From Vermamoeba vermiformis (taxonomy: Eukaryota): a DNA stretch of 64,000 bases. A model generated the notes under the pieces. It was not told the DNA's origin, ran no database searches, and saw nothing but the letters and a program-made list of their open reading frames with translations. Every line of letters begins with the position of its first letter. Within the stretch, counting starts at the first letter, position 1. The stretch covers positions 248,001 to 312,000 of the forward strand of contig JBEWZL010000098.1 in the NCBI GenBank assembly GCA_045837725.1, in the 5' to 3' direction. Both the position numbers and the translations under genes were made by a program. Shown here one piece after another: positions 1 to 62,404 of the stretch.

Positions 1-993
1 TCAATACGGAGTTCTTAAATAAGCTGCGTCCTCGTCTGACGCAGTGGAATGCGACACAGCTGGTGGCAGATCTGGTGATTGAAGTGGTGCCCTCGCTCAA
101 ATACACCTACACGCAGTACGTCAACAACTACGACCAGGCCCTCAAGACCCTCAACTGGTGCATTCAGAAAGAAGACGCCTTCAATCACTTCCTCTCGGAG
201 CGCGAGATGGTCAGCACGGCCAGTCGCAACAACGCGCAGCACAAGGGCCCTCAGAGCGCGGGACTGTCGCTGCCTGCCTATCTCATCATGCCCGTGCAAC
301 GCCTGCCCAAGTACGAGCTGTTGTTGAGCGAGCTGTTGCGTCACACCGCTGAAGAGCACCCTGATCGCACCAATCTCGAACTCGCGCTGCAACAGATCCG
401 CGAGACCACGCAGTTTGTGAACGAGAACAAGCGCAATGCGGAGAACTTGTCGCGGCTGTTGTCGCTGCAGAATCAGATCAGCGACTGCATGGTATGTAGT
501 GAGAGGTGATTGGCCAGCACGTGATGGTACTAATTAGGCAATTGCCAAATATAGAATCTGTTCAGCACGGATCGCATGTTCATCCGCGAAGAGAACCTCA
601 AAGTGTACAACACGGTGGAGACCAAAGAGAAGGTGCGCCGCGTGTTCTTGTTCAACGACATGCTGCTCATCACGCGCCACAAGAAGTCGCGCCGCGCCAT
701 GCTCAAGTTCAAAGAGGCCGTGGCATTCAAAGACGTGCAGCGCATGGAAACACTAGGTAAGTCACGCGCCATCCTCTGTTTGACACCTGTCACTCACCTG
801 TCACGTGCCTGCAGACGAGACGAGCTTCAGAATGGTGGTGCCGTCCTTCACCGTGTTCACACTGGTCGCGCCGAGCAAAGAGTCGTGCGATCAGTTCTAT
901 CGCGAGGCAGTCGAGGCCCTGCATGCGTTCAAGAACAGCAACGGCACGAACAACAACGCGAGTAGTAGCACGACTAGTCCGCGCCCTAATTAA
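1..993 (+). CDS. RhoGEF (DH-PH domain) protein, 3' part; gene starts before the window
   Basis: DH signature LSLPAYLIMPVQRLPKYELLLSELLRHT...NENKR, then PH-like exons (FIREENL...RRVFLFNDMLLIT). GT-AG introns near 492-553 and 757-814; stop at 993. Confidence 0.9.
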
Positions 994-1203
994 CACTAGA
1001 GCGACCTTCTTATTTATTGAATTGTATCATAGCGTGTAATTAAACTGCGTTCTCAACGGTGAGAACAACATTCAAGTCACTCATTGTACGTGTCATAGGG
1101 ATACCTCGTGAGAATATAGTGCTAGTACAGGTCACAGTATTGTACTGAAGATCTAAGGACAGTCGTGCATCAAGCATATTTAATAATCTTAGTATTTATT
1201 ACG

Positions 1204-2741
1204 TCACACATTGGCCTCCTCGCCACTGCTCGACTTGACGAGAGTGCGCAAGAGATTGAGCTCGCGAATATAGACCTCATCTTCACCAGGGGTCTCGAGT
1301 ACTTTGGGCACGTGTTCTAAGCGCTTGTCGTTCATGATGGCAGTGAAGGTCGTCATATTTAACTTGCCCTTGCCGATGTTCTCGTGTCGATCCACTCGTC
1401 CCCCCTAACAATAGTGTCGGTCACTACAGATGTGTACATATATGCATTTATGTGTGCTCTATGTTACCAGTTCAGTCTTGGAATCGTTCAAGTGAATCGC
1501 TTTGAGTGCCGCGAGACCAATCACATCATCGAACTGGCGCATCATCTCCTCGTACTTGTCTTGCGTGCGAATGTCGTATCCAGCTGCGAAGGCGTGACAC
1601 CTGGCAGCGGAGTTAAATCGAGCGCTCATTGTTCGGTATTAACTTACGTGTCTAAACAGACTCCAATGCGTTCAGGAATGCGCTTTGATTTGTCCGCTGT
1701 GTTGGTTGATTTTTCTGCACCATCAGTATTGTCTTTGTCACTATTCTTAGTACTGTCGCTCTTCTCTTTAAGTTCAAACATCAGATCCATGATGCGGCGA
1801 ATGTGTTCAAATTTGTGGCCCATATTGGTGCCTTGACCGGCAGTATTCTCGAGTAATATCGCGCACTGACCAGGTACTTGTGCTAGTACTGTGTTCAGGC
1901 CCTGCGCAATCAACTTCAAACACGTCTCTTCGTCCTGTTACTGGATGTTGAGCGACAGTTATACAACGCTAGCACTTACTCCACCTGTTGAGGCACCTGG
2001 ATGCAATACTAAATATGGGATGCCTAATTGTTCGCACCGCTTGAGCTCGTCCACGAGGCCGTTAATGGACTTGTCGCGTACATCCGTTTTGTTGGAGCCT
2101 GTTGGTACATTAGCTTTCAATCAACCAAGCCACCGCAATCATACCGATATTGATCAGGTACGAGGCATGCACCATGACCTTCATCTTGCTCTTAGTCACT
2201 TCCTCTTTGAATTTAGCGGCATCGTTCGGCGCAATGTCTTTGGCAGTCCAGCTACGACCACTCTGCGGTGTGTTATTGACTGAGAATAGACCGTAATAGA
2301 GCGTACCTTGGTGAATATTTGAATAGCATTCGCGCCAATAGCCTTGCCATTAGCAATTGCTTTGTAGATGCCACCAGTGATAGACACGTGTGCTCCTATG
2401 AGAGCAGTGCGACCTTGCGCTACATCAGGCGATTAACAACAAATCATAAATGATATATTCACTAACCTGTAGTCTTTACATTCTGTGCCAAATCAGAAGT
2501 TGAGGACTTCAAGTTTTCGCGCTTGATCTGTTTTAAATAATTAAATAGGCCTCTAATTTATGATCGTTTATAAATAATTACTAGTGTGCTGTATTTTCTC
2601 CGAACGATAAGCCTTGATAATATTGAGCGGCCAAAATTAAATGAGCTGTGCATTGCGAACCTTTTTTGTGTCGCGATCTGCTTCGTCCTCAAGTTTCTGT
2701 TCAGCTTTTCTTTTATTATTTATCTTAGTGCGTTGTGACAT
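1204..2741 (-). CDS. APN1: AP endonuclease, endonuclease IV (Apn1/Nfo) family, multi-exon
   Basis: Spliced motifs [60 protein letters not shown] and VLETP; basic N-terminus from ATG 2741. Confidence 0.92.
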
Positions 2742-3198
2742 TCACCACTTGCAAATAAGTAACTTTGATGATTAAATTGCGCAGCTTTGTTTTGCTGCTG
2801 AAGCGCGAGACCACAAATGATTTCTTGGGACCGTAAAGAAGATAATAAGGACCTTTACAATTAATTGAATTCGTTCAAATATTGAATCAATAACGGTGTC
2901 TAATACTCGACAAACTCTGCAATCTGATCCAGATTCGATCAACGATGGCAATTTGAAGTAGCACTTAACATTTGGAGTCCTAATACCGCATATATTGATT
3001 CTACTTATTTTCAGCGAAACAACTGCACGAGTGAAGCACTAAACAAGAGAACCCAAACTCCCGCGCAAATTTGAGATTTCTTGCGTTTAAATTCACACAA
3101 CGGTCATCACCAAAATCTTGACTGTTTCCGTTTTTGTTTTCATTGTTCCGTACACACTTACATCCAAGCACCATACCTCGTGTATTTTTAGTACAATC

Positions 3199-5239
3199 AT
3201 GTCGATTTGGGAGGATAAAGAAAATTTGAATAATGCAGATGCGATGTCCATCTCACCGATGAAACACTCGCCTGTACCCAAGCTAAACCTCGCCCAATTT
3301 GGTGCGAAAGATAGAACGCCAAGCCCTATGAGTCGTAAGCGCAAAGAGCCTTTCACTCCTTCAAGGTACGTTGCAGAAATTTTTACGCAACGATTATGAT
3401 CTCTAAATTAATTGTTTCTTTGTAGCCCTATGAATATCTCTCCCGACAGACCTCAGAAGAAACAGCGCACGGGCAATGAGTCTGGTGTTTTCAAGCTCCC
3501 AAGCGGTCCTCTTAACTTCGACAGTCCCAAGGTACGATCGGATTGCAATTTTTAGCTTTAATTCGGGCAAAATACTCACTTAAGTTACATTACAGAAGGA
3601 TGAGCAATCATCGACTAAGAAAAAGAGAAAGTTCAAGAGCATATTGGTGTCCAAGTCCTCTAAACTGAGCATGATCCTAAAAAAAGGAAGCCAACAAGTC
3701 TTGAGCACGAAACAGACCGAGACCACTGAAGAGAAGAGGGATATTTACAATGTATTCGAGGAGATGCAAGTCGAGAAGGAGTACATGAAGGATCTGCCCT
3801 CTGCTCGCGGTACTAAAAAGGAAAAACGACCGACTTTGCGTACCTATCACTCGCTCTCGCAGATCAGCTCGTCAAAACCTGAAAAGATGGTGATTATCGT
3901 ACCCAGACCCTCGCCCGGAGCACAGCGTAAGATTTGTGATTTGATACAGCCGAGATCTACCGTGTACTAATAAGGAAAATAGTTTTTTCGAATGTTGTGC
4001 GTCCCTCGCAAGGCTGGACCCTCGAACTCGGTGATATGGCCGCATTGTTGGGCCAATCCATCACTGTTGAGCCTCATCCTCCTCACGCGCGCTACTTTAA
4101 CACGCACTTCTGGCAGAAACCGCACCAAAATTTTGTCGGACAAGATCCACGCCAAGGTCCTGTTGTGGTGTCAGTCATTCAAGCTGATGGCACAGGTCGC
4201 GCGATTGTACGCACTGGCACTGGCGAGACACGTCTTGAAGCCCCAGTACGACCTGGCGTGGTCAAAGGCCGTTCATTCCGTCCAGTATTGAAGTCTCTGC
4301 GTCCTGACATTGATGTCAAGTTGTTGACACGTGTCAAAGATCAACAGCTGTCAAATGAACTCAAGAAGTACGAAGACGATCAATTGATCACCAAGTTCAA
4401 GTTCGGTGTGCTCTATGTGCGCGAGGGTCAGACCCACGAAGATGACATGTTCGCTAACTGTAAGTGACACCTGTCAATCTCAAACCCGCACTAACAGACG
4501 TCAAATAGCTGAGCCTAGTGTGCAATTCTACGAATTCTTATCTCTGCTCGGTGATCGTGTCGCTCTCAAAGGCTTCTTGGGCTACACTGGTGGTCTCGAC
4601 ACCACTCGTAAGTCACTAGTGACTCGTTCACTGAACTGCATCACTCACATTCTATATTAGGCAATGCTACGGGCACGCACTCGTTCTACACCAAGTGGAA
4701 TGAGCTCGAGATTATGTTCCACGTAGCGCCCATGTTGCCGTACAATGCCTCTGATCGTCAACAGCTCGAGCGCAAGCGTCACTTGGGCAACGACATTGTG
4801 GTGCTAGTGTTTGTGGACAGCAACAGCACGTACGATCCTGCTACCATCAAGTCGCACTTCAATCACGTCGTGTTTGTCGTGCAGCCTGAGCTCAGCGGTG
4901 GAGTAACGCGCTACAAGTAAGAGAGCAGTATTATTTAGTGCTATACCATGGTACCAATCAAGTCGCAAACAGGATCCAAGTCGCGCGCAAGAATTCAGTG
5001 CCCGAGTTTGGTCCTAGCCTCGTGTACCCTCCTATCTTCGAGCGTGGTCTGTCATTCCGCAACTTCTTGTTGACCAAGCGTATGTTGTTGTTGTATTATA
5101 TTCGATATTTACGCTAACTCATCGCTTGGTAGTAATCAATGCTGAACGCGCTGCCTATGAAGCAGATGAGCTCAGAACAAAATTGAATCGTACTCGTGAG
5201 GGCTTTTTGACCTACTGGAACCAAACTTACGGCAAGTAA
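3199..5239 (+). CDS. Rap GTPase-activating protein (RapGAP domain) with disordered N-terminus
   Basis: FKFGVLYVREGQT, GYTGGLDT, IMFHVAPMLP, QQLERKRHLGNDIV (Asn-thumb motif) and SHFNHV. The intron at about 3928-3982 joins the N-terminal ORFs in frame. Confidence 0.9.
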
Positions 5240-5473
5240 CCAGCCTTAGTCAATTTTGAGCGAGTCGTAATAGGACTCATGTGTATAAGACAAACTAGCT
5301 TTAAGTAGCTATTTGTCGTTGTTTGTAAATATCGTAATAAGTAAAGTGTTAATACCAACAAGCACCTTCTGTTGCTACATAATATGTGGTATTGCCAAAT
5401 ATAGACGCAATAATATTCTTTAAAGTTTGCGTCAGTTCAATTTCAAAAAGATTTTCTGTGCTGATCACCACAC

Positions 5474-7187
5474 ATGACGGAGAGTCCAAAGAGCCGCAGT
5501 CCTAGGACTCCTGTCTCGGGACTGAAGCTCGATAATATTAGAAAATCACTCACTATCTCTTCTGGCTCACCAAGGTCACCGCGCCAAGACACAAATCTAA
5601 CCAACAGCTGGTACGATCAGATCTTCTCTTGGGGTTATGGACTTGAAGGCACATTAGGACAGGGCGAGGCAGTAAACAATCCAAATGCGCGAGTAATTGA
5701 AGGCCTTTCGACCGTTTGTAAATTTACGAAAATCTCATCTGGATTCTATCACTGCTTGGCGCTGACAGGTAATTTAATTATAATCGTTTAAATAGATAAG
5801 ATTTTGTGAGTCTTTCTTTTCTTATGTTGGATCGGCCCGCAATAAATCACACAAATTTCGGCGCTAAAAATATCCTCCACATTATGTCGCGTCAAACAAT
5901 AAATTAACTGTTCAATAGACGAGGGACGAATATACACGTGGGGCCGTGGTGAGAACGGTCGATTGGGTCACAACGATCATGTGACTCGCTTTCGGCCCAA
6001 GCTGCTCGAGATTGACGGTGACAGCACGCTGAACCGCTTTGACGACGTGTCAGGCGGCAGTCACCACTCGCTCGCCGTGTCCAAGACTGGCCAGCTCTGG
6101 GCTTGGGGCTCGGGCTGGTCCGGTCAGCTCGGCATTGGTGAGCGCGGTGACTCTGCTGTGCCGCGCATGCTGCCCAACTTCACCGCGACACGTGTCATTG
6201 CAGTGGCTGCAGGCTATCACCACAGCTTGGCGGTGACAGGTGCGTGACAGGAGCTATTTTTAGCACCACTAATTCAGTGAACCAGAGAACGGCACAGTGT
6301 GGGCGTGGGGCACAGGAGAGCTCGGTCAGCTCGGCCTCGGCGATGTCAGACAGACCTTCAAGCCACTGCCCCTCTCTGACGCGCGTGTCAAGTTCCGTAC
6401 TGTGGCAGCATCGGAATTTCATTCAGCCGCTCTCACAGTGGACGGGGCACTGTACACGTGGGGCAGTGGCGAGTCAGGGCAGCTAGGACTCGGTGCTGGT
6501 CTCACTGAAGCACACACTCCGCAGCTCGTGGCCACACCTGACCTGTCATTCACGCAGGTGGCACTCGGTGTCAGTGCGACACTGCTCTTGTCCAGTACGT
6601 AGTTTGACACCTGTCATCCTGTCACACTAACACCCTCGCAGCGAAAGGTACACTGTATTTTTGTGGTCGTGAACTCGCCCCGACTAGTGGTTCATCGATG
6701 CCGTGTCACTTTGGAGTTATTCCGCTGCAGCCTGTCAATGTCAAATTTACGCAAGTGGCGCTCAAAAACACGCACGCACTAGCTCTGAGTGTAGATGGCA
6801 AGGTCTATTCAATGGGTCTGAATACTTATGGCCAGTTAGGACGTGAGGGGTGAGTAATTCAATCAAGCACAATCACACCCGTAGCTGCTAATAACACCGC
6901 TCAGGCCTGAAGCACAATTCACTGAAGTCACTCTCGAGCACTTCAGATTCAAACACATTGCTGCAGGGGCCAATCACTCGCTGGCAATAGCAATATCAGT
7001 GCCCAGTGCGCCACTCAACTCACCTGAACGGACCAATCAGATGCGTGCTCGGCTCAATGAGTATTCGCGCGAACTGGCTGAGATCCGTGAACAAAAAGAG
7101 CGGTTGAAGCGACGTGAGAAAGAACTCCTTGCTCGCTGCACTGAGATGCAGAGGGAAATTGACGCTCAAAACAATCGAAACAAATAA
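5474..7187 (+). CDS. RCC1-repeat beta-propeller protein with C-terminal coiled coil (paralog A)
   Basis: Repeated WG.G..GQLG / AAG.HHSLA units (SWGYGLEGTLG, TWGRGENGRLG, WGSGWSGQLG, WGTGELGQLG, WGSGESGQLG); heptad-rich tail. Confidence 0.9.
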
Positions 7188-7432
7188 TGTATCATTCTTG
7201 TATTATAAAATGCGCATGTAAACAACTATTAGCTTTTAGGACGAATTCTGTTTGATTGCGCTATGTACCAACAAAAAAGAAGGCCAAGGAGACCGCAAGT
7301 ATTGTCGACATGCCCAGGCAAAAAGAGTCGGTCTGCCAGCGAATCCAATAAGATGATGAACACTCAGTCATTTACTGAAAACGGTTCGCCAGTTAAGTGT
7401 CTCGTGGAAGGAAAACTGGACAAGACGCAAGA

Positions 7433-15918: not shown

Positions 15919-18900
15919 ATGGAGGATGAAGAGAACATTTCGATTGAGAACCTTGACCAAGCTGACGTCTTGGAGCAGCAAATTCAAACGTATATTATCC
16001 AAATTATGAATGAGGATGCTACCAAGCAAGAGAAAGTTCAGCATCTGCACAGGTACACGCCGCTCATCTGGATTTTGATAGTTTTCGCAAATTATTTCCA
16101 AAGACCAGTTGTAAAAGAAATTATTTTATCATATTATTTATCGTAGTATTCCCGTGTGGGCAATTTTTAACCATGTTGGATCCAGGATCGCCCTCATCTA
16201 TGAACGCGAAGAAGAAAAATACAAAAAATTGCTAATTGACCCTAATACAGATAAAAGATATGGTACGTCTTTATAATAGCATCCAAAAATATTTGCAGCT
16301 AACTGTTTTTTAATTAATCAGAACACACGATCGGCAGGCTAATTAATTTGTTTATTGAAAATGAGGAATTTGTATTACAAGTAAGTACTTACCCATACAT
16401 TGCATGAACATTACAGGTGCTTTCAGATAGAATGAAGTTAACTTGCCTTGCAGATCACAGACAAGTGGATGCGCGAGAATGACGTTGACATTCACACAGC
16501 TCTGGCACGTTTATTATTTGCAGTATCAGTGTCGTCAGACAGGTCATTCTTCGTCACCAATCCTGACGAGGACGAAGAACGGCTGATGGAGAAATTTCAA
16601 TTCTGGATCCGAACTCCGCCAAACAAAGCCCTGCGCGTTTATGGCATGGGTACGTACCTTACTATAGTAAATGCATTCTTGGTACTAATTATTTTGTAGG
16701 TCTTATGGCGCATTTCATTGAGGAGTCCGACTTGGCTGGCAATACTTTATCAACAGATCTGCCTGTTGTAGCGCTACAAAGGTTGAACAATTACATGTCC
16801 TATATGAGTTCTATTAAGCCCGATAACGATGCACAATTAGAGGCTGATATTGAAGGTACTGCATTACAAGTGCCGAGTGTGGACGATGAAGTGGATGCAA
16901 ACGAACCAGTGTTGAATGAGCTGCATGTGAGCAATGCGAGTCTGAATGAGCTCGAACAGGTATGTTTGTGGTCATTGGTGGTGTTAGAATTCATACTAAG
17001 ATGTGCATCAGATTTGCTTGCTCAAGTACCTTGCGGATGTGGGTGAATTTCAAGAAGTTTTATCCCCAATCATTCAACACCGCGGCGTTGATGTTCTTTT
17101 GTACTATTTAAAATCACGCGATCCACACGTAGTCGGAGGTCAGTAGTTAAAAACAATAATGTCTGTTGTCACTTGTGTGCTGACACGTGTCATCAGCTTC
17201 GCTCAAAGCCATCAATCAACTGCTCGCACATCGCAAGTTTGGTACCGTGTTTGTTGACGCGGGAGGCATGAAGGCACTAATTGACATCCCGAAGAATGAG
17301 TTCTATGCCACGCTAGTCAGTCACTGCATGGGCAGCATTGCTGGTCTGCCTCAAGCCGTTGAACAAATATGCTTGGTAAGCACATATTAAGCTGGCTTGC
17401 GAGCTATGTATGTATTAACATGTTGCAGTTACAAGAACCATTGCCCCAGCAACTAATTGAATACATTGTGTGGCTCGTGAACAATCCCAATGAAGTGCCC
17501 AAGAAAGATGGCTCGCTGTTCTTCACCTTGACCATGCGATTCAGAAAGATCTACGAGTTATTCACTGCTTCTGAAGTACCGCGCCAAATGATTGACCAGA
17601 TGAAAGAAACATTAAACAAATTGACCTTCAGTCATACTCCCGAAGAGATGATGGAACTAGGCGACGATGAAAATACCATGACCCGTTCTGAGATGCAGAT
17701 TGTAGGCAGCTTTTTCCTGACACTGCGCGAGTACATGCGCTCACAACTGGTCTATCAAACTGAGCTCTGGAAGCGCAAGAATGCTCAGGCTCACAATAAC
17801 AAAGAACAAACGCCCAAGAAGAGCAAACCAGTGCCCGTAACTCCGTCTTACAAGCCCATGAAGGTAGAAGACGAGACTGTTCATGAGACTATCATAACAG
17901 TGCGCGATGGAAGTACGTAACTTGTATTGTTAGACAACAACGCTAACTCGTGATAGACCTCGCCAAAGCCAAGTTCAAAGAAGTAGAAGAGTTTGTTAAT
18001 CTCGAGGGCATCGTTCAAGCACTCAAAGTCATCGAACATAACAACAATCTCTGTGAGCGAGATTTGCGTGCAGCTCTAGCTGTAGACAACGCAACAGTAG
18101 CTCTCGATGTACTGCACGTGTTAACAGCCACGAACTACGGACAAAGTGAGGTTATGAACGCTAAAGTCGGCGAGAAGTCAGGTACGTCTAACGCCATGAC
18201 AATATCAGAGCTAACTGCAGTTCAGCTATTTCAATACTGCTCGATGCTGTCCGCGAGATGCAATATGAAAATCCAACAGTGATTACTGTAGCTTTGAAGG
18301 TGTTGTCGAACTTTGTGCTCAAACCTTCAACTCTCGGTCTTAATAAGTACGTCTCATCGCTATTAATATCCGCAGTTCTAATGCAATGACAGGCAAAACA
18401 AACGACAAAGCATCGATACTAGACTCGATGAAATGACAAAACAAACGTGCAAGACCATTCGATTGAATGACGGCATCAGTGTGCTGCTCTTGCTGCTCAA
18501 ATATCGCACCTCAATTTCAGATGCTGACACGATCCGAGCTCTGGCTTGTAAAGTGCTTACAGGTCTCAGCAAGGACACGACGATCAAGCAGATTCTGAAC
18601 AAGAAAGTAACGAGGACATTGCCTGAACTGATCAAAGAACCAGTCGATCGATCTAACATCGAGGCATTCCAAAAATTCAAAGCCAATGCCAAGGAACTAA
18701 TTCAAGCAATGTAAGTGAGTTTTTCAGCTCAAGTAGCATACTAATATAGTGCTAGTACTGGTCGTGACGCAACAGTAGCCCTGGCTGACACGGATCATGC
18801 GCTGACTAAATACGAACAAGCAGCTATTGTTGCCCAGACACCGATTCACTACGCGGACAATGAGCTGTTGCAATTGATCCATCAGCACTTGACTGAACGA

Positions 18901-20797
18901 GGACTGGAACAGACTGCGAATACTCTCTTGGCGGAGGCTGTAAGTCAATAACATAATTCTCGAAGGCCTTGCACATGTACTTACGCTCCAATGCAGAAAA
19001 TTTCAGCCCCACCCAAGCCAAAGAGTACGCGCAAGAATAGGCGCGCACTAGTCACTCCATCAAAGCGTGCCCAAATGATGGAAGTTGAAGGAGTGGGTGA
19101 GACGTCAGATGAGGACTCGAGCGATCATTCGCATCAACCGAGTCAGAACAGACTCGATGTGATTATGAAGGAGTATTTGATGGATCAACATCGCAAGTGT
19201 GCTCATCCCTGCGCTGTACTGCCCGACTTCTCGCTCATGAACAGACATCGCGTAAGAACTTCATTTTGACACGTGTCACTACACAGCTTACTTACAGTGA
19301 TATTTAGTGCCCCGAGCCTATCGATAGTGTACATACTGGACGTGCGGCCAAGAACATTGGCACGCGCATTCTTCATCGACAATGGCGACCTGTGCGAGGA
19401 GGTTATGGTGGAGCGAAGTTGGACAGAAGATTCAAGTATTCGAAGTACAGACCTACTCGCAAAGTGTTTGACGATGGTGAAATGATGACGTGCTGTGCAG
19501 TTGTCGATAACGGTAAGTTGAGGGCAATACGAGTTAGGCAATATCCCTTATATTTTGTTCCAGGCGAGCGTCTGTTAGTCGGTACTCCCAATGGTGAAGT
19601 TCTCGAATATGACGCGCGGACCACGCAAGTTGTCGTAAGTAGAATATTCTCTATTTAATCGTGCACTTTGGTCTAATAGCTCTTTCAGAAATTATGGGAA
19701 CATGTGAGCGAGACCTCAGTGCATTCACTGAAAACAGTGCGCGGGCAGAACATTGTGATGAGTTTCTCATTGAGTCCTAACGAAACTAAAGTGTTCAACA
19801 CCTCTAACTTGGAGACACCACTTTACTCACTGCCGACAATGAGCGGCGAGTTCAACAACGCTGGTGATCGCATTGTTGGTGTCAAAGCGCCTGGCAAAGT
19901 CGCGGTGTATGACGTGAAGACTGGCCAAGAGTTGATTGTAAGTCACACAAACTGATTGCAAGTGAACAAAAGCTAATGAAATGTGATAGACCCTCGACGA
20001 CACATCGTACAACAGGACATTGGCCCCGTCATTCCCGTGCTTCAGTCCCGACGACTCGTTGTTGCTGTCTAGTGGAGTCTTATGGGACTACAGACATCAG
20101 CGACCGATCTATCGATTTGACAGGTTTTCTAATTATGGAGCCGAGAAGTTCAATCCTTCAGGCCTCGATATTATCATTAATTCGGAGATTTGGGACACGC
20201 GCAGCTTCAAATTGGTGAAGACCTGTTCAGCACTGGATCAGACGAGCATCGTGTTCTCCAACAAGGGCGATGTGATATTTGCAGTGCCCAGACCACCCGT
20301 GCTCTCGTTTGAGAATCCATTCGCCAACTTCACGAAGACACTGCGCGTTGTAGATGCCACGGACTACGAGCTGATCACAGAGCTCAATCACGACAAAGAG
20401 ATCATTGATTTGACGATTGATGCAGAGGACTCGTATCTCGCGATGATTGAGAGCACTGGTTCTAACTTTGAAGTGCACTCAATGTGTCGCATTTGGGAGA
20501 TTGGTCGCACTCGCGGTGTTGATGACGAAGATGACGAGTGGGACGAAGAAGATGGTGAAGATGAGGACGACGAGGACGGCGACATGGATGAAGTAAGCGA
20601 ATGATTATATTGTTATAATTATTGTTCCGAAACTAATCATTCCTTAGTTCGATGACATGGACCTCGATGACAGCGACGAAGACGCCGTTGAATTCTTTGG
20701 CGATGAAGATGGTGAGGACGATGACATGGACGGATTTGACATCGAAGAGTTTGATGACGACGACGAAGATATCGATATTGACGATGACATCGAATAG
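15919..20797 (+). CDS. DCAF1: DCAF1/VprBP homolog (armadillo-like, LisH, WD40, acidic tail), CRL4 substrate receptor
   Basis: DADTIRALACKVLTGLSK, AIVAQTPIHY..ELLQLIHQHLTERGLEQTANTLLAEA (LisH), QHRKCAHPCAVLPDFSL...CPEP, FNPSGLDIIINSEIWD and a D/E-rich tail. Confidence 0.93.
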
Positions 20798-44900: not shown

Positions 44901-46028
44901 GCTTTGCAAGCACTTCTACCTGCAAGAGCTATCCTAATGCGGGAGCTGCGTACTCGTGCAATGCGACCTATGTTTATAGCTTGTTTTACGACAACAAAAT
45001 GTTGCAGGTATGACTGACTGTTGGTATCTATTGTTGTGCATCCATTAACGTGAGTGCACAGGTGTTCGTCAACAACACGTTAGTAGTTGCGCATTACGTG
45101 AAGTTGGCCGGTGTCGAATACTACGCAGGATTTACAGCTGCTAACGCCGATGATCAATTTGCGCAACAATCTATTACCAACTGGGTCTACACCTACTATC
45201 AACCATCGTTCGGTGAACAATTCAACTTTGTCTTTTCAGAAGGCGTAGATTTGGTCACCCTTGGCAGTGCCAATATCGTGAACGCCAAGCTTGTGCTGAC
45301 CAACACCTCTGATCAAGCTGGTGCAGCGTTCTATCCGCACCTGCTCCACCCCGAGGCTGGCTTCAATTCATCGCTGATTTTCTTGCCAATCAATTGTGAT
45401 CCTGTCTACAACGGTGCTGATGGGTATGTTCACGTCACAACCGAGAGTAATTATTGACGCGTGTCACTATAGGTTCACACTGTTCTTTACGAAGCAATAC
45501 CCTGCCGAAGAGCACATTGTTGCATCTGCAGGTGGCCTAATGGGCATACAGCAACAACCAGATGTCTCGATGTTCGCTTACAGTGCCACCTTCAACGAGT
45601 TCTTCATCGCTAACTGGTTCGTGTCTGTTACGTAACGATGCAATGTATCTAACACAATATAGGACCACACCGACCACAGACTTGCTGCGCTGGTTCGGTC
45701 AAAACATTCCTAATCCCCAACCAAAGCTCGCTTGCAATGGCATCTATTACTTTGACATCCTTTACGAGCGCAACACACTCAGCGTACGCAAAACGTTTGT
45801 TGTTTAAATTTGCTAACGTGTTCGAATAGGTCTTCCTCAACTTCAACTTGGTGCTCACTGCGCCCATGTACTTCGATCCCGTTGGCTACTATGTGGGTCT
45901 GTCAGGTGGTACTGGCGAGGGCTACTTTTCACAAGAGTTTGGCACGTGGCGCTTCAATTCATGTAAGTCCGTTCTTCCATTGAAACTAGCGTGTTCTAAC
46001 TCGACCTCAAACAGATGACAGCAACTAA
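41955..46028 (+). CDS. Secreted protein with five tandem L-type (legume/ConA-like) lectin domains
   Basis: Signal peptide MASSLCLTLVVGLCLIAVISG; five repeats of G.A.Y..P....GF.S.F / G.DGF.FFL / YY.GFTA...Q.I..W.F; no transmembrane segment seen. Confidence 0.82.
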
Positions 46029-48480: not shown

Positions 48481-50805
48481 TTAATACCAAGCCCAATGCT
48501 CTTTGAACGGCTTTGGATCAAAACATGCTGTGCTTCTGTTACTGTCAAATTCTTCTTCGAAATAGCCTCGTTCCAAGGCCTTGCAAAATTCACAACCACA
48601 CTCAAATTCCTCCAAATCACTATCTTCCAATTTCTTGTCGTACCAATGCCCTTCTTTGGGGCGTTGAATGGTCGTGGGCAAGTTGTAGCCGTGATAAATT
48701 CTCGTGTTCGGCAGCTGCTTTGACAACTCGATAATATCTTCGTGTGCAGCCAGTCGCGTGGTCATGTACGTCGTAGCTTTGGAACTTTGAACCAGATCCA
48801 AAAGTTTGAGTTGCGTGAACTTGGTGAAGTACGGCAGAACGAGCGTATCGACATATTCAACTTTCAACTCCTGCAATGTGCTGCACTGTACGAGCTCGTC
48901 CAAATATCGCGGCAGTACCTTCACGATTCTGCCGTGCTTCATTTCCCGCGAGACTGAGAGCTCGAAGCGAGTGACTTTCAAGCTCGCGAGTTGGCAAGGA
49001 GGCCCGCCCTCACCGTGGCGATTATATGTTATTCGTAATACTTCTAGATCCTCGGGAATATTTTTGATGGAGTTCGCTTGCGGTTCGACCAGATGCAACA
49101 GCTTCAAATTGATCAAGGGACTGAGATCCATCGTGACGTGGCAAACTGACAACGTTAATTTTTGTAATTCGATTAAGCCAGAAAAATCGATTGAATCGGC
49201 TATTCCATCCAGCAGCAACGATCTTAGCTTGGAAAACGTGCTGAGGACTGGTTTGATGATACCGAACACATGCCGTCCAGTGCTGTAGAGCGCGAGTTTG
49301 GTCAAGTTAGGCGCGTCAAATGCAGTGCTGCTTGGGCTGTAGGGTGCAATCAAGCGTTCAAGTGATGGCAGCGGCACTTGCGGACGAAAGTCGACCTCGT
49401 GCAAGTAGAGTGCCTGGAGCTGATCCGACATCGACGCTCAGAGTCGAAAAACGTCTGGATTTCATTCTACAGTTAATTGTCATTAATCAGTACTGCCTGT
49501 GCCTTGACACGTGTCAACTCTACGTACGATAATTTTTTCACGCCAGCAGGGACAACACGCTCCTCGATTGTGTTAAACGTGGTACTAACACGCAACTGTG
49601 TTAAATGCGTCACTGAGTTAAGCATCTTATAGGAAGAGCTAGATATATCTTGACAGTCCAGATCCAGCTTTTGCAGTCGTGTCATGCGTGTCATCGCAGT
49701 GACCCATGCCTCGTCCAAATGATTTATCTCGCTGTGATCACGCGGGTCCGACAACATGCAGTTGTTAATCGTTAAGGACGTCAGCTGCGTGTACTTGCTG
49801 GCAATGAGGTCCATCGGAATAGCAGTTGCGAGGCAGTTCAGCGATCGAAACACGAGCTTTTCGACTGACTTGAAGTACTGCAATAGACCTAGCTTGAGCT
49901 TCATGCGGTGATATTTGCGCCAGTGAGACCTTGCAATCACTACTGTTCTGATAAAACGTTTGTTAGTCCCGCAAAAAGATGATGCGACACTTACTTTTGT
50001 CTGTTCGCAATGGCGTTGAAAATAGCTTTCGAGCTAAGCATGAACTGAAATAAGTCTGGTGCTCCAAGTTCTGCACTGATGAGCGTTATTAACTCCTATA
50101 ATAATAATTAGTGTTGGTGAGACGCAAGTGATGATCAGACAACTCTTACCGATGGAAACAGTGACAAGAGACTCGCTTGACACTCTGAGCCCCAATGACC
50201 GATGCGATGGCAGTAATAACACTTTTGATCGGCTGTGAACGTTGTTAGGTGCGTCAAAATCAATCTATCAACTTGTTACCAAGTGAGTTGGCGACACGTT
50301 TTATCGTCGCATTGATCTTCATTTCATTTGTGATCCAGTGCAGCACTTGTTTGGCTTGTGCTTCGTGTGCAAAGCGAAGAAATATGGTGCCTTAGAAATC
50401 GCTTGAATAACGCCTCATTGGTTCATTCGTTGTTACAATGCACTTACTTCGCTTATCGGCGGTTATATTTTGCAATTTGAATTGACGCAAATGAAATATT
50501 GTGCCATCGAGGCTCCACTGTGATGTTTCTGCGCGTCAATATTAAAATCAAATGAAAATAATAAATAATATACTTACCAAACGAATATGTCACCGGTCCT
50601 GTCCGTTGTAAGTCTTCATCAATATCAATCTATTTAAATAATTTTTCAATTACAACATTTTTGAATTCAAGATCCAAATTGCTGACCGTTTCTTTTTGTG
50701 GCTCTGTAGCACTATCGATGTCCAATGATGCAAACCGATTCAAGGTAGCTATTACAACAAAAATTATGAGCTGAGGTTGAATAAAGGAGCGGTTGTACCT
50801 TTCAT
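48481..50805 (-). CDS. Zinc-knuckle / F-box / leucine-rich-repeat protein
   Basis: Spliced CYYCHRIGHWGSEC (CX2CX4HX4C, 50180-50221), then LLSLFPSELITLISAELGAPDLFQFMLSSK (F-box-like), LRRs (LTSLTI, LQKLDL, LERLIA, LTKLAL) and a CxCxxC-containing C-terminus. Confidence 0.78.
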
Positions 50806-51404: not shown

Positions 51405-54215
51405 ATGCTTCGAATATGTATATTTAGTTTATTTTTGTTATGTTTAGGGCTAAACGCTCGAGCGGACACGATCAACATTCTTATGATTGAGTTCCAACTC
51501 CCCTTAGTAAATATACATGTAGCAGGGTACGAAGCACTAACTGGAAATAAGGTAAATTTCGGGTTTAAAATATGGAGCACGCGAAAGCAATATTTAATTT
51601 ATAATTTTTAATAGGTCAATTTGATAACCTTGACTTCTTATGCGGATTTGCGGGAGCATATTCTCGCTGACCTTAGACAAGGCTCACCTTTTTATGACGC
51701 ATTTATATTTTTCGGCCAACTGAAGAGCGAGCTCATTTTGTGTTCGGATTGCGATCCAGAACAACGACCTCTGATTGCACCACTGACTGAACTGATCAGA
51801 AATGATCCTGCACTTCAATGGAATGATGTTGCAGTGTTTCAACGCACGACAAACAGCGCTTATGACGGCGACATTTATACTGTCCCTGTTGACGGAGGTA
51901 AGTCCGCGCGTAAAAAATGAATTTACGCAAGTATTAATGTGATTCTCAGACTTCCATTATATGTTCTATCGACAAGACGTTCTTGACAAGTTTGGTTTCG
52001 ACGTACCTCAGACATGGTAATTAATTTAAGCGTTAATGAATCGATCCCAAATTCTTTACTAAAAATAGCATAATTCAATTAGGGAGGAGTTTATCGCAGT
52101 GGCAAAGGCAATCAACGGACAAGACATTAACGGAGATGGCGTTCCAGATTACGGAGCCTGCGTTGAGAGGATGAATGTTACCGGTTGGAATCCAACGCCT
52201 TACTTCTTTTGGACGATTGCTTCGCCATTGATTCAAAGTCAAGGCACCAAACAAGGCATGTTCTTTGATGCCAAGTCCTTGGACATTATGGCCAATACAA
52301 CTGCTTTTCGCGAAGCTGCCCAAATCTACCGCGAGATCGCCAACTACGGACCTTATGGCGATGGCGGGATAATTCGCGGGGCATGGAACGAAGGACGATG
52401 TGCCCTCGCCATTGATTGGGGAGACATCGCGGCCAGATCTCAGCTCAACACCTCCACTGTCGCCAATGTGACAGGCATGTCGCTTGCGCCTGGTTCGCGA
52501 AACGTATTCAATAGAGAAACAAAACAAATGGAACAATGCACGAGCACACTGTGTCCACTGATGGATGCGAATGGAGTGAATCGTGCACCATTTGCAGCAA
52601 CACTTGGATGGACAACAGCAGTGTCACGCTTCATTCCTTACTCGCGACGTCAAGCTGCCTATGACTTCTTGTCGTACGTCAGTCAGTCGGCACAAAGCAT
52701 CAAATCAGTGCTCGTTGGTCTTGGCTGGGACCTCGTGCGTGACTCACAAATGGACCCTGAAGTGTTCTTGAATGTTGGCTTCAGCAACATCACGGCCACA
52801 ACCTTTGTGAGTGCCAGCAAAGGTGCTCAAAATCATCTCAATGCCGTGGTGGACTTGCCCCTCGAGAAGTACGGCGACTACGTGGACACGTTTGGAGTGA
52901 AGTTGTCACAGTATCTCGCCGATGAGATCTCACTCGACGAGCTCCAGTCGTCTGTTGTGGCCTCGTGGGACATGCTCCTCGACAAGTACGGTCGACACGA
53001 ACAACACACAGCCTATGCGCTGTTCATTGGTGCTCAACGACCCGTGTTTGACTATGAAGTGACACTTCCTGATGCACTTCGCATTGCCTTCATTGTCATC
53101 TCTGGCTTCTGCATCTTGATTGCTCTTGGCCTCGTTGTGTTTGTTGTTATTCACCGAAACAAGAAGGTACGTGTTGACGAGTACTTTGACAGGTCTTGAC
53201 ACGTGTCGCTGACCTATCCTATTGCAGATCATTCGTGGCACGAGTCCAACATTCCACTACACCACACTCGGAGGAGCAGTGCTCATCTTCTTGTCAGTGC
53301 TCTTGTTCTCCATTCCTCCGATCACGTCGGAGCTGTGCATTTCGTCCATGTGGTCGTTCGCTGTAAGTGACCTAGGCTCTGTGTTGCAGATCAAAACTAA
53401 CTTTGCACGACGACAGCTCGGTTTTGGCTTCATCTACGGCAGCATATTTGTCAAGCTCTACAGATTGTGGCGATTGTGGAGACTTTCAACGAAGAGTCTC
53501 GTTATCAAAAAGATCACCGATGCTCATTTGATGCCGTTCTTTGGTGGAATTCTCGTCGTGTACATTGCAGTTCTGATTGCATGGACCATTGTCGATCCAC
53601 CAGTTGCAGCACAGTACCGAGAGAGTCTTGGGCCTGATCAGTTCATGATGGTGTGTCAGACTGGATCGACAGGCATCATCTTGTTCGGCATCATTCTTGG
53701 CTGGTCGTGCTGTTTGTTGTTGGTCGGCATCATCTTGTCATTCTTGACTCGCAACTTGGCTGAAGCTTACAACGAATCGCGTCCCGTGTCAATGTCCGTG
53801 TACATTTACAGCTTCTCAGCAGTCATATTGATTCCCATTCTGTTCAGTAAGTCACCGTTTAATTTGACACGTGTCACGTTAATTCGACTTACCTTTTTTT
53901 GCCTCAGCTGTGCCCAATGCACTCGTGGTGTTCATTGTGACCGATGCAGTGCTCGTGTTCAGCACATTGGTGACACTGATCGCCTTGTACTTGACCAAGA
54001 TTGCGCGCATCCGCAAAGGTCTCGGCGACAAAGTATCATGGCGCCACAGCGGCTCAACAGGCATGGGCAGTGCCACGCCGAACACCTCTACCAATGACGC
54101 GGGCTCAGTGCAGCAAGCCAACGAACAGCACCGAAAACTGGAGCTCGATAATCAGCTGTTGCGCGAGAGGATCAAAGATCTCGAGAATCAACTCCGAGCT
54201 CGGCCAAAGTTCTAG
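51405..54215 (+). CDS. Class C-like 7TM receptor with solute-binding ectodomain, copy 3
   Basis: Signal peptide MLRICIFSLFLLCLGLNARA; same exon structure as copy 2; LYRLWRLWRLS duplication. Confidence 0.88.
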
Positions 54216-55972: not shown

Positions 55973-58900
55973 TCAATCTTTTCTCTTTTGCAACAACGCA
56001 GTCAAGTCCCACAGTCGCAATACACCGTCTTCACCGCCACTGAACAGCATTGTCTTGTCACGTTCTTGTCGCAAACTCAACGAACCGACACGACCTCGGT
56101 GACCACGCAACTCGATGAGGCATTCTGCGTCCTGTAAAAAGAATTGCGGTTAATACCGATACATAGTTAAGTAGGCCTTGTTGGCTGTAGTATATAAATA
56201 TGGTACCTTAATGTCCCAGACTCTAATGCTCGAGTCTTCAGAGCCTGAAAACAAGTGGTGCGACGTAAATTGCAGCGAAGTGACACGACTTCTGTGACCT
56301 TGATAGGCCGATACAACTGCACCAGACTATAAAAATAGCATTAAGAACAATAGTAATGCATAAACTCCACATTATTAATCTTACTTTGAGTTTGAATGCG
56401 ACGAGACTTGGATCGTTCTCGGAAATGACAAAAACAATGCCGTTGTCTGACATATTGTTGAAGCCCAAGCGGAAACACTCGGGCATGGCTGTGATCGACT
56501 TGCGGTGATATTCTTCGAGACACTCGCCAGTCTAAATAACAACAGTTAGTGCGACTGTCCAATGAGCCCTGAGTGCTCAAACTTACAGAGATGTCCCAGG
56601 CACGCACAGACTCGTCAGTGGATGAAGAGTAGAGCGCGTGATTGTACTCGGTGAGGCCCATGACGAGGCCAGTGTGGCCACTAAATGTCCTCGAAGATGA
56701 GATCACCATGAATGCGCGATTCGGGTCGTAGCTGGCAAGTGGTGACGGAGCCCACGGCGAGTTTGGAGGACTAGATATAGACGTGCTTGAGCTCAGCATG
56801 CTGAAGTTGGGGCTTGGCGATTGCGGGGGTGTCACGCTCGAGTTCATGGACTTGGGACTGTGCAAGCTCAAGCGAGTTAACGCTGAGACTTCTGGCGCCA
56901 ATTGCCAGCCTAACAATGCTCCATTTGCAGCTCCAGCAATGACCATCTGTAAGAATTGCGTGAGTTAGGAGTTTGACACGTCAAAAAAAAAGATGTCCAA
57001 GAAAAGTGTCACGTACCTCTTCGATGACAGCAATGCTGCTAATAGCGGCACTGTGGCCTTCTAATTTTAATGCAGAGCCGTCGGTAGTCCAAGCCCAACA
57101 ATTGCCTTCCATGTCACCGCAGAACAGACCAAAGTCGTGCACGAGAAATCGTGTGATTTGTGTGCTGTCTTCGGTCGTGAATCGATGGGCGATGGCGAGT
57201 TTCTGCAAAAGAACTGTCAGTTTCTGTGCCTTAGAAACAATGTCCCTGCGTACCTTAATGTCCCACGCGACAATCTCATTGCCGTTGATAAAATACAACA
57301 GATTGGACTTGACTTCAAGTTGTCCTGTCGGCTTGATTTTATCGATGGTCGTGAGTAGTTTGCCCGTGTCAACTTCCCACACACGAATGCAGCTAAAGTG
57401 TGACGTAAACACGTATTTTTTCTTGGCATTCACGTAATTAATTTCAACGTTTTCTGGGCTCTTTGTCGGCGGAACAAATTCTTTGCATTCACGCGAGATA
57501 GGGACCTGGTGAAATATTATTAATTCCTTAAATATATAATCGATTAATTATTAATTTCGTACCTCTATTAATTTCTTCTTTGAATTACGAGTCAAAAGAC
57601 GAGACTGTTGAACAAAAAAGTTAATTTTGGCCCAGGACACGAGTGACACCTGTCAACGTACTCGAGGACTCTTGAAATGCAATTCTAGACTCGAACTCTC
57701 ACTGTCGACGCTGTCTGAGAGGTCATTCTCGTTCACTGCAAGTTTGGTCAAGTATTTGATTTGATCCACTAACTTTATGACATTTTCACCTGTCTTCGCT
57801 GAGACCTAACGACAAGCAAGAAATTAACGCCGCGTTCGTGTGTAATTACACTGTGATTACTTACAGTGACGTGAGCACATCGTAAGCTGTAGGCCATTGC
57901 TTCAGCCTCGGCCACTTTGACCTCTTTGTTCTCGAGGTCACCTGATCATTTTATTAATTACTTCCTTTTATGGTAACCTAGCCGAGAGCCTGTATCATCG
58001 TGCATTACTTACATTTGTTCCCGACGAGGATGAGCGGTATAGACTTGGTCTGTTTGACAGCTCTCACCGCGTTGACATGTTTCGGGATCTCACGCAGAGA
58101 TTCTTTGTCATCGAATGCATAGACGAATACAAAGTACTCGGGCTCAGAATAGCACTGCAAGACAGCATATTAGCTCGCAATTAAAATTAATGATAAAATT
58201 TTCGGTGAGTGTTAACCTACCTTATAGTAGTAATAAACATCGGTGCCTGCATCAACAGAAGAAGTGTCTTGCATCTCAAGTTTCTTAGGGCCCTGAGCTG
58301 TATCAACATCGATGATGATTGATTTGCCTGTCACATATTGCAATTAAATAACGGTCGTCAAACACGTCACGTTACGAAAGGTATACAATTTAGTAAACAT
58401 TCGTAAATTGCTAATAATATCGTCTATTTCAAATAAAATATTTTTAAATATTATATTATGCACGTACGTTGTTTTGAAGGGCTAATGGCACTCGAAGAAG
58501 TGTCTGACAAGATCCGTTCCAAAAGCGCGGTTTTTCCAACCCTACTTCCGACAAAGCAGTATGACCGAGTTAAGGTTAAATAATATGTATCTTAGTAGTA
58601 ATATAAATTTGTATTAATTGCTCGCTAAACTTGTAATTTGAAAACACAAAAGTCAATCAAAAGGATATCACCACTTTAGTATCATCGCCGGCATCTCTGA
58701 TCGTAGCTATAGCTCCAAAACTAACGCCCTTGTCCTTTTCATGACGATCCTTATCCTTTTTCTTATCTTTCTTCGAGCTATCTTTGAATTTTGGGGATTC
58801 GATCCTTTCTCCAAGCAAGGATCCTCGTGAGGCACTTAATTTTAGTGATGGACGCATTGGCGAGTCGATATCTTGCTTAATATTCGAACTCGAATGACGA

Positions 58901-60264: not shown

Positions 60265-60541
60265 GTAAGAGCGATTATTAATATGAAAGCCACTTTTAGC
60301 TCTTTCAATGGGTCCATTTTTAGTTCTCATTTAATGTTTCGAATCCGCCATTTTTCGGGCAAACCATAAATCGAGCAATACTTTAACTAGCAGTACGGAA
60401 GTATGCCATTCATTAAGCATGATTCACGCAGCGGTTGAAACAGTGCTGATTTGTCTAAATTTGGAAAATATACGATAGATCCGCCATCGAAGATATTTTA
60501 ATACTATATTACAAGTAATTATATAACTTACATGATTCGAA

Positions 60542-62404
60542 TTAATTCCGACTAATCCTACGCAGATTCTCGCTACTCGGCGTCCACTTCTTGAAGCCCA
60601 GATCGTTCTGCAAAAAGATGACACGTGTCGCGTGCACGGCCTTGTACTGCACGTAGTTGGGCTTTTCTTGGTGCTGCAGGCCAGAGACGTAACTGTGCTC
60701 GAACTCGCGCAGCACCATGTTGTGTCGCATGAAGGACGATGCGATCATACGTTGCAGGCCGAGTGAATCTTCCCAATTGGGAATGAACACAATGAACGAC
60801 AGAGGCTCGGACTGTGCCTCACTCAGCAGCGTGTCGATGCGTTCAGCGCACTTGAGAATGACTTGCTCGACAAAGGGAGGGTTGACTTCGAACGAGCCTG
60901 AAGTCGGACGGTAATTGAAGAACGAGCCAAAAGAGCCAAAAAACACGTCGGTGTCGGAGTACGCGGAGCAATAGGAGCCATAGAAGCTGTTCAGGGGTGA
61001 TGCAAAGCACTCTGTAGTCACACCAAAGAGCTCGTTGAGTGCTGAGAACACTTTGCCTGGCAGTGCCGCATGCAGTCCTGAGCCCTTGCGCGGCAGTGAG
61101 GGTGACATGCACATCTCGTAGCGCAACAACATGGCGAAGAGACAGCCTGGCACGACGTCACTGTGTTCACCGCAAGTCCTCCTGAACAGCGCCTTGAGCT
61201 TGTTGTAGTGCTCGACCTGCACGACGACTTTTTGTGTTTTGAACTCGAGTGTCAGCTCTTTGCTGCAGCGCTCAACTTTGACTTGTTTGTATTGACTAGC
61301 AACTTCTTCTTTGGTCCGCTGTTGTTCGTGCAGTTTCTTGTTGAATTGATCTGCCGCGCGCAACAGTAATTTGCACGTGAGTTCAACGCGCGAGTGCAGC
61401 TTTTTGTTCAATATTGGACACAAGGACAACTGCAGTTCTTTGATCTTGTCTACAATGCGTGTCTTCTCGTCATCGTGTCTGAGAGTCTTGACCCATTGCA
61501 CTGCTTCATTGCACTGCTCGTTCACTGAATTCTTTTCATCTTCGCTCAGCTCGTAGTCGTTCGTGTCTGTGTTGTTAATCTCGCCGTTAATCTCGAATAA
61601 ATTGCTGCAATGAAACTGCGTGGCATTGATTGTGCGACAAACATCGTTGATCGGTGCTAGTGTCTTATTTGCCAATGTTATTGCCGCGCTTGTCCACGTG
61701 GTCAGTGCATCCACGCCTTCGCGCAAATTACGCGGGAACAAACTGACTTTAGTAGGCACGTCTTCGATGATCTCTTTGTACAATGACGTGCTCACACGTG
61801 GCTCTACATCAATTGGTATCACTGGATCGTGCTTTGGTTGGCCTGATGGAAGAAACAATGTCAGAAAATGGATGCGAGATCTCAATAAACAAATAAAAAT
61901 CTTACGCAAAATACGCGTAATTATTAGAGATATTAGCGTAATATTGGTGATCTGGTGCGATCTGTTATTTAGGAAAATCGGAAAAAATATTATTGAAAAT
62001 AATTGTTACGGGTCCAAAAGTTACTTTAATTGACATTACACGAAGATTCTGGCCGTACTTATCGCGTATAAAATTACAAATAAATTTAAATAATAATTAC
62101 CTGATAAATCTAAAAGCATTAGCCTTTCAGACAGCCACCGCTCAAAAGATAATTTTGGAACTGGCATATCAACGAGAACCAATAATAAATGTTCATAGAG
62201 GCCACGCAAATTACGAATATATTCAAATCGAATAAGTTCTTTGTCCAGATCCACTAATGGAGGCAAAGTCGGTGGATTTTCTTTTGTCGCTACTAACTCC
62301 TCGAGCAATGATGGTGAAAAGAGCACAATCTTGTCATTGCTCATATTACGTGGGCTCTTTTTATACGAATCATCGTGTCCATTGTGGTGCTTCCTTCTTT
62401 TCAT
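60542..62404 (-). CDS. PCIF1: mRNA cap-specific adenosine N6-methyltransferase (PCIF1/CAPAM); exact 3' end uncertain
   Basis: PKLSFERWL, HYNKLKALF, LLRYE, GLHAALP, ECFASPLN, FFGSFGSFF, GSFEVNPPF (m6A MTase motif IV) and PLSFIVFIPNW. Confidence 0.92.

Follow-up and report, generated by a model that had tools for sequence, protein, structure and literature searches.

An intron-resident 12-bp palindrome iterated across unrelated genes in a 64-kb window of Vermamoeba vermiformis DNA resembles a Hth/MEIS dimer site

Introduction

HIP1, GCGATCGC, is a highly iterated 8-mer palindrome of cyanobacteria that is found in genes and spacers alike, and in plants, KNOX proteins bind pairs of TGAC words that lie in introns. 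Here we describe the iterated 12-bp inverted repeat TGACA-NN-TGTCA, which we found in a 64,000-nucleotide stretch of DNA from Vermamoeba vermiformis (contig JBEWZL010000098.1, positions 248,001 to 312,000; the window, with position 1 as its first letter) and which sits, in nearly all of its copies, inside very short introns of unrelated genes.

The closest described layout is that of a DNA site for Homothorax (Hth) and MEIS proteins of the TALE homeodomain class, for which a palindromic dimer motif has been written TGACA_NN_TGTCA (PMC5501803). Two further sources give TGACAGGTGTCA as the consensus obtained for MEIS3 by systematic evolution of ligands by exponential enrichment (SELEX) (PMC5449588) and TGACAGCTGTCA as the SELEX seed of dimeric Hth, the latter source also citing a crystal structure of a MEIS1 homodimer (bioRxiv 10.1101/706473). 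Repeated features of introns are known as well. Introner families populate the introns of several protists, including Micromonas, Aureococcus and Amoebophrya, and their members share sequence over their full length and, in Amoebophrya, carry inverted repeats at the intron ends and target-site duplications. Literature searches by motif and by topic found no description of the word or of an intron-restricted iterated palindrome; the exact 12-mer was met only in Ebola virus papers that, to judge by title and abstract, are unrelated.

Results

A 12-bp palindrome recurs far above expectation

A pattern search of the window with TGACANNTGTCA, that is, TGACA-NN-TGTCA, recovered all 12 copies that a preliminary description had reported, each at its coordinates. 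Read on the plus strand, eight are TGACACGTGTCA and four are TGACACCTGTCA, and no match has a centre other than CG or CC. All counts given here refer to this one 64-kb window and to our own gene model, and relatives were compared by way of peptides. One hundred dinucleotide-preserving shuffles of the window gave a mean of 0.21 copies and a maximum of 2, and none gave 12. The enrichment also holds against intron composition: the predicted introns contain 10 copies, where fitting Markov models of order 1-3 to these introns gave an expectation of at most 0.007 copies per variant, and models trained on the 113 introns that lack the word expect at most 0.0016. The most repeated 9- to 12-mers of the window are words derived from the motif.

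Sites with up to two mismatches to the CG form number 26, against 3.84 expected. Counted by compartment, introns hold 11 exact, 3 one-off and 3 two-off copies, exons hold 1, 4 and 7, and the DNA outside predicted genes holds 0, 0 and 2, respectively; near-copies in exons, which the preliminary description had mentioned, are thus present. The quality of the sequence is all-or-none, as expected if selection keeps the sites perfect.

The enriched unit was delimited by spacing and by masking. TGAC-N4-GTCA occurs 14 times, whereas spacings of 0-3 and 5-8 give 0-3 occurrences each. When the full word is masked, TGACA and TGTCA occur at 2.14 and 1.58 per kb in introns versus 1.99 and 2.40 per kb in exons. 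Because the N4 spacing is strict and the half-sites alone are not enriched, the enriched unit is a dimer-type palindrome and not the half-site.

The word lies in short introns of unrelated genes

Genes were predicted with a dynamic-programming finder of our own making, which scored codons by log-odds and splice sites by matrices whose seed was a set of 15 RNA joints, and which also included a length term. The joints came from contigs of two runs (X8 and X9) that behave as spliced RNA, with gaps of 47-233 nt that have GT..AG ends; 15 joints were itemised and 23 further ones lie beyond these. At the RNA-supported introns the 5′ splice site is GTAAGT, GTACGT or GTATGT, and CTAAC-like words are found ahead of the acceptor. 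The model contains 18 genes with 38,259 nt of coding sequence and 123 introns (8,882 nt in all, median 53 nt) and leaves about 16.8-16.9 kb outside genes. This model is a crude one; all but one of the 15 RNA joints are recovered by it (14 of 15), but these same joints were its training set.

Eleven of the 12 copies lie in GT..AG introns of 47-63 nt, ten of them inside introns of the gene model (Table 1). This placement, already claimed in the preliminary description, was borne out by RNA joints, by reading-frame logic, by the gene model and, for one intron, by eye. No exact copy occurs in the ~16.8 kb outside predicted genes. The chance that all 11 noncoding copies would fall in the 8.9 kb of introns and none in the 16.8 kb outside genes is P ~9e-6, a value that treats all noncoding DNA as equivalent and hinges on our gene model.

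Table 1. Exact copies of the palindrome in the window, followed by two one-off copies
Sequence	Position	Strand	Location	Host gene and supporting observations
TGACACCTGTCA	781..792	+	Intron 757-814, 24 nt past the 5′ splice site; CC in sense; CCTGTCAC 4 nt downstream	RhoGEF (Pfam); RNA joint 754->813 in both X8 and X9
TGACACGTGTCA	4325..4336	+	Exon, encoding L-T-R-V; the sole exonic exact copy	Rap-GAP gene (Pfam Rap-GAP_dimer); X8/X9 contigs unbroken, hence unspliced, across 3983/3985-4420/4459
TGACACCTGTCA	4465..4476	+	Intron 4460-4508, right behind its GTAAG	Same Rap-GAP gene as 4325; RNA contig pieces stop at 4459, where GTAAG-TGACACCTGTCA starts
TGACACCTGTCA	6605..6616	+	Predicted intron 6595-6641; CCTGTCAC 1 nt downstream	RCC1-repeat gene
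TGACACGTGTCA	17181..17192	+	Intron 17139-17196 (GTCAGT donor), at its 3′ end, 4 nt ahead of the acceptor	Same large gene as 19267
TGACACGTGTCA	19267..19278	+	Predicted intron 19252-19307	Large gene with a weak LisH match
TGACACGTGTCA	27525..27536	-	Predicted minus-strand intron 27499-27549	PH + PLDc gene
TGACACGTGTCA	35363..35374	+	Last intron, 35354-35401	GPCR paralog A
TGACACGTGTCA	38584..38595	+	Last intron, 38566-38628	GPCR paralog B
TGACACGTGTCA	49505..49516	-	GTACGT..CTGTAG intron just upstream of exon 48481-49431	Intron read by eye; absent from the gene model
TGACACGTGTCA	53865..53876	+	Last intron, 53847-53907	GPCR paralog C
TGACACCTGTCA on + (= TGACAGGTGTCA in sense)	57644..57655	-	Intron 57605-57661, 6 nt past GTACGT	WD40 gene
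TGACACGTGTCG (one-off)	53197..53208	+	Intron 53167-53227	GPCR paralog C
TGACGCGTGTCA (one-off)	45455..45466	+	Predicted intron 45424-45472	

The carriers, 11 of 124 introns or roughly one in eleven, are of ordinary length (47-63 nt versus the median of 53 nt). None is a first intron, and their distance to the predicted start is 613-3,872 nt. The word begins 5-24 nt after the 5′ splice site in ten cases and 42 nt after it in one. This last case is the copy at 17181; since it stands at the 3′ end of its intron, the position of the word relative to the splice sites is not fixed. The reading frame that comes from upstream ends at 17143, and the one that continues downstream is open only beyond the TGA of the motif, so that an intron ending at 17196 is required, and the CTGAC of the motif itself is the only branch-point-like word in it. 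Relative to transcription, the asymmetric form is found both ways round, in agreement with the preliminary description: in sense, three introns carry CC and one (57644) carries GG.

Nine of the 18 predicted genes, from unrelated families, carry a copy. Pfam matches identify the hosts as RhoGEF, Rap-GAP, RCC1, PH plus PLDc, WD40 and three 7tm_3 genes, together with a large gene that has a weak LisH match. The names proposed earlier for the RhoGEF, Rap-GAP, RCC1, phospholipase D, WD40 and G-protein-coupled receptor (GPCR) hosts were therefore supported, but the gene called DCAF1 showed only the weak LisH match and the name F-box-LRR was not confirmed.

A side feature of the CC form is a second CCTGTCAC within 1-4 nt downstream in two unrelated introns (781-806 and 6605-6625), so that the right half-site is directly repeated.

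The word resembles a dimeric homeodomain site

The word shares with the Hth/MEIS site its half-site, its inverted arrangement, its 2-bp spacer and its 12-bp length: TGACA/TGTCA is present in 12 of 12 copies, and the halves are always inverted and exactly 2 bp apart. The CC/GG form (4 of 12) is letter for letter the MEIS3 consensus TGACAGGTGTCA. The preliminary description had named TGACA as a TALE half-site; that identification was right and can be extended to the whole published dimer layout, TGACA_NN_TGTCA. There are also differences. The centre in the window is mostly CG (8 of 12) and never GC, whereas the published seeds have GC or GG. Monomer half-sites are not enriched in the window, and the copies are confined to introns of ~50 nt; there is about one per 5 kb, and half of all genes predicted have one. 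A Pfam scan of 54 exons of the window gave no homeobox match.

The core of the word also qualifies as an E-box. All 12 copies keep CANNTG, eight as CACGTG and four as CACCTG, and the variants inferred in relatives (CATGTG, CAAGTG; see below) would remain E-boxes. However, the outer TGA/TCA flanks, invariant in the window, are not in any basic helix-loop-helix (bHLH) consensus that we can cite; the HES5 consensus is GACACGTGCC (PMC5449588). CACGTG occurs 42 times in the window, eight times within the full word and otherwise with no preference for introns, and with the word masked its density per kb is 0.79 in introns, compared with 0.58 in exons. The core alone does not carry the signal; the enrichment belongs to the 12-mer with its fixed TGA/TCA flanks.

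Like HIP1, the word is a perfect palindrome far above expectation and present mostly as exact copies. The literature retrieved under the name HIP1 deals with cyanobacteria only. Unlike HIP1, a prokaryotic 8-mer, it is a eukaryotic 12-mer restricted to spliceosomal introns, and a HIP1-like spread over coding and noncoding DNA is contradicted in the window, where 11 copies are intronic, one is exonic and none lies outside genes.

The strict spacing, the symmetry, the occurrence in both orientations, the variable position within introns and the identity to a known dimer site point to recognition of double-stranded DNA by a dimer. Restriction to introns and presence in half of the genes are at odds with ordinary promoter control and suggest a function tied to the transcribed gene body. 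Our leading interpretation, which we hold tentatively and at somewhat less than even confidence, is therefore that the word is a DNA site for a dimeric protein and that selection favours it within transcription units. The reading on DNA, the identity of the reader and the effect of its binding are proposals. The 12-mer would be a putative high-affinity site on double-stranded DNA for a symmetric dimer, the best-matching candidate reader being a MEIS/Homothorax-type TALE homeodomain protein and the second a bHLH protein that reads the CANNTG core. Selection would keep the sites inside transcription units. With about 60% of the genome coding and introns of ~53 nt, the stretch between 5′ splice site and branch point may be the only gene-body space able to hold a fixed 12-mer, and the sites would for that reason end up in introns. 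Binding might then act as an intragenic regulatory or chromatin mark during transcription. The more specific proposal, that a TALE-type dimer reads the palindrome on DNA as a gene-body signal marking transcription units in about one intron in 11, we regard as unlikely.

Several observations weigh against a DNA site of this kind. An ordinary transcription factor site would be expected to have promoter copies as well, yet the ~16.8 kb outside genes hold no exact one, and upstream of the GPCR genes there are just two two-off copies. Confinement to introns is what one would expect of a signal in RNA, and nine of 18 genes, from unrelated families, exceed what a specific regulon would take in. CG, the most frequent centre, departs from the GC or GG of the published MEIS/Hth seeds. 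Finally, the compartment counts rest on a crude, self-made gene model trained on the RNA joints it recovers.

The two-off copies just mentioned are partial copies of the form TGACACGTGA at 32092-32115 and 36030-36041, upstream of GPCR paralogs A and B, with a second CACGTG in the one at 32092. They are the only motif-like sequence outside predicted genes and could lie in 5′ untranslated-region introns or in promoters.

Folding and splicing features of motif introns

The placement would also suit a pre-mRNA element, either a hairpin of the form UGAC-loop-GUCA or the site of a dimeric RNA-binding protein, that tunes splicing, retention or a co-transcriptional step of some tiny introns. Such an element would account for the intronic position of 11 of the 12 copies and their absence from non-genic DNA, for the 10 of 11 intronic copies that lie between 5′ splice site and branch point, and for variation at the centre, the would-be loop, which is CG and CC/GG in the window and, by inference, TG and AG in relatives; moreover, 8 of the 12 copies read TTGAC in sense, which is branch-point-like. 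Motif introns also fold more stably than others (mean z -0.82 versus +0.30; Mann-Whitney p = 3e-4). This lower folding energy, however, follows from the palindrome that they contain. The halves pair in 5 of 11 minimum-energy folds, as a stem of 4-5 bp with no consistent extension; no flank extension or covariation was seen, the half-sites being invariant among the copies, and a search of the whole window against Rfam at gathering thresholds gave no match. The hairpin that the preliminary description had offered as an alternative is thus weak.

Splicing itself gives little sign of a special role. In motif introns, splice sites and branch points look ordinary (GTAAGT or GTACGT in 9 of 11), and the only motif intron with direct RNA evidence was spliced normally in two runs. 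As the word is present in 11 of 124 introns only, it is not needed for splicing as such, and its asymmetric form would face an RNA reader in both orientations. Taken together, these data make an RNA-level element rather unlikely in our judgment, and we continue to prefer a site read on DNA.

The flanks give no sign of a repeat family

A word restricted to introns could also be a functionless trace of the process that created it, such as old introners or miniature inverted-repeat transposable elements (MITEs), a short templated insertion, or biased repair favouring the palindrome. The restriction would follow from an intron-creating element, introner families are known in introns of several protists, and the excess of exact over near-exact copies could mean recent generation and not selection. 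Like introner or MITE introns, the motif introns carry a repeated feature specific to introns of unrelated genes. Here the resemblance ends: what they share is an internal 12-mer, within random flanks and introns of normal length with canonical GT..AG ends. When the flanks of 11 copies, 20 nt on each side, were compared in both orientations, the two near-identical GPCR paralogs being counted once, 12.2 of 40 positions were shared, which equals the random-intron null of 12.2 (sd 2.4). No sequence is shared beyond the 12-mer, and the introns have no terminal inverted repeats. A search for inverted repeats (>=16 nt, within 400 nt) returned 12 pairs, none of which brackets a motif intron; the sole pair that touches a copy is the palindrome itself, at 53859-53882. 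In keeping with the preliminary description, the copies are therefore not remnants of one transposon family.

The lengths of motif introns (47-63 nt versus a median of 53 nt) further argue that 12 nt were not simply added, and the word is kept in homologous introns of paralogs and, to judge by peptides, of relatives, in which the rest of the intron cannot be aligned. One exact and several near copies are exonic. An analogy with the introners of Amoebophrya was considered and rejected, as the inverted repeats there sit at the intron ends and the word is internal. The random flanks speak against an origin by mutation or mobility alone, as does the survival of the word in homologous introns that have diverged, and we rate a functionless trace as quite improbable.

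The word is retained in homologous introns of paralogs and, by peptide evidence, of relatives

Three tandem GPCR paralogs, A (33025-35739), B (36116-38933) and C (51483-54215), each consist of an N-terminal solute-binding-like part and a 7tm_3 domain, and each carries the word in its last intron. The preliminary description had stressed that the word is kept in all three while its flanks diverge. That argument is weakened by the sequence next to the intron: the upstream exon tract of ~130 nt is 100% identical in the three genes (35220-35353, 38432-38565 and 53713-53846), in a surrounding of 75-90% identity on either side, and has the appearance of a gene-conversion tract with its end at the intron. 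Given such a tract, the three copies are not independent witnesses. Paralog A rescues the argument in part. Out of 40 positions, its intron flanks agree with those of B at 7 and with those of C at 10 (null mean 12.2), and the flanks of B agree with those of C at 22; the flanks of A are thus at random-level identity with the 12-mer intact, and its word stands in otherwise unrelated intron sequence.

Relatives of these genes were available as prokaryote-style protein calls that read through introns, so that their DNA was deduced from peptides and, given codon degeneracy, the readings that follow are compatible with the word and do not prove it. After the conserved exon end ...ILIPILF, paralogs B and C of the window read SKSPF[HN]-LTRV. 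At the same intron one relative (P0147) reads SKLLF-DMCQ..., then VLTN, and a second (P0148) reads ...N-DKCQ...SLTL, both resuming the next exon in frame, and a third (P0146) reads ...RRV-MCQ. D-x-C-Q is encoded by xxT GAC ANG TGT CAx, so these peptides are compatible with TGACA-TG-TGTCA and TGACA-AG-TGTCA. Besides the motif, the intron translations share only SK, at the 5′ splice site, and LT, which is compatible with CTAAC. The homologous introns of relatives would accordingly contain the word or one-base variants of it, with the half-sites kept and the centre changed. A second intron, after ...HRNKKV, gives a similar picture: a further relative (P0005) reads RVDEV-LTRV-T, and in the window paralog C has the one-off copy TGACACGTGTCG and paralog B a two-off copy at 37938, while paralog A lacks the intron. 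DNA of the relatives was not found in metagenome contigs, for which the GPCR exon and an alignment of 15 homologues served as queries, or in genome contigs queried with the same 15-homologue alignment.

These comparisons bear on whether the word is a local peculiarity of the 64-kb region, produced by a co-regulated neighbourhood or by gene conversion among a few loci. The data do come from one window, and 3 of the 12 copies lie in tandem paralogs with a common conversion tract. But the copies occupy nine independent introns in unrelated gene families, and the presence of the word in homologous introns is implied by proteins called on further contigs, those of related organisms. We consider a purely local origin very unlikely.

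Two observations concern the receptors themselves. Their homologues carry PF13416/PF01547, and the N-terminal part resembles bacterial solute-binding proteins. In metagenome annotations, relatives are labelled sugar-transport binding proteins because prokaryotic gene callers split the genes at their introns.

Consequences if the word is a genome-wide gene-body site

On the more specific and less likely proposal, that of a TALE-type dimer marking transcription units, the word would be to a eukaryote and its introns what iterated signals such as HIP1 or Chi are to bacteria, and the ancient MEIS-type site would be in use beyond ordinary promoter or enhancer control. Were the pattern to extend genome-wide, the very short introns of a compact protist genome would carry a conserved sequence-specific signal besides their splice signals, which would bear on why tiny introns persist and on what gene-body DNA encodes. 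For an ancient class of DNA-binding proteins the pattern would also provide a concrete target that is easy to test, in a lineage whose close relatives are not annotated, and the word would be a lineage marker by which eukaryotic contigs could be sorted from metagenomes.

The same 12 letters in phage and prokaryote contigs

Viral (IMG/VR) and prokaryotic genome contigs were scanned with the pattern GTAAGT-N0-25-TGACACGTGTCA. The IMG/VR scan returned seven loci, six of them single chance matches and one a tailed phage. The contig of this phage (31,704 nt; L006, L012 and L013) contains 18 exact copies of TGACACGTGTCA, all as tttTGACACGTGTCAaa, and encodes by PHROGs a terminase, portal, major head, sheath, tape measure and baseplate. 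Its copies lie in spacers of 20-30 nt that run from a stop codon to the next ATG, and for 12 of them the ATG of an open reading frame of >=70 amino acids is no more than 18 nt away. On the gene strand TAAnTTTG is followed by the palindrome, an arrangement that we take to resemble a Bacteroidota -7 promoter box with an operator. The phage element, an iterated promoter/operator palindrome, thus has the same 12 letters with T/A flanks, at 18 copies in 31.7 kb, but differs from the word of the window in lying in intergenic spacers ahead of the ATGs of a bacteriophage. As only 4096 perfect 12-nt palindromes exist, such sharing may arise by chance; coincidence is the probable explanation, and we see no biological link between the phage and the eukaryotic word.

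The prokaryotic genome scan returned at least 117 loci (L014-L130); among the matches listed, two copies were the maximum for any locus, and no contig resembled that of a eukaryote. Most of these loci are Streptomyces with the same 38-nt span, and one conserved Streptomyces locus therefore carries TGACACGTGTCA.

Other features of the window

A second candidate palindrome, TGAACTGATCA..., was dismissed, as it proved to be paralogous coding sequence. A conserved HECT exon has one relative at 97%, and its best named match is 43% identical. Taxa that neighbour the window in the sequence atlas are a mixture of chytrids, diatoms and green algae, and the published Lemnamoeba genome (GC 53%) does not match as a source. 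Two raw RNA-seq runs (X21 and X23) that bear the same species label as the best-matching DNA run gave 15 and 28 reads, respectively, on positions 1-20000; 41 of these 43 reads are at 95-99% likeness, and the runs may stem from another strain or species. Lastly, TTTGTAAATA or its complement occurs eight times, at 5322, 15689, 25146, 26387, 31433, 39122, 41313 and 54264. Seven of the eight copies lie outside predicted genes, near gene ends, and the word is a candidate polyadenylation/termination or core-promoter signal.

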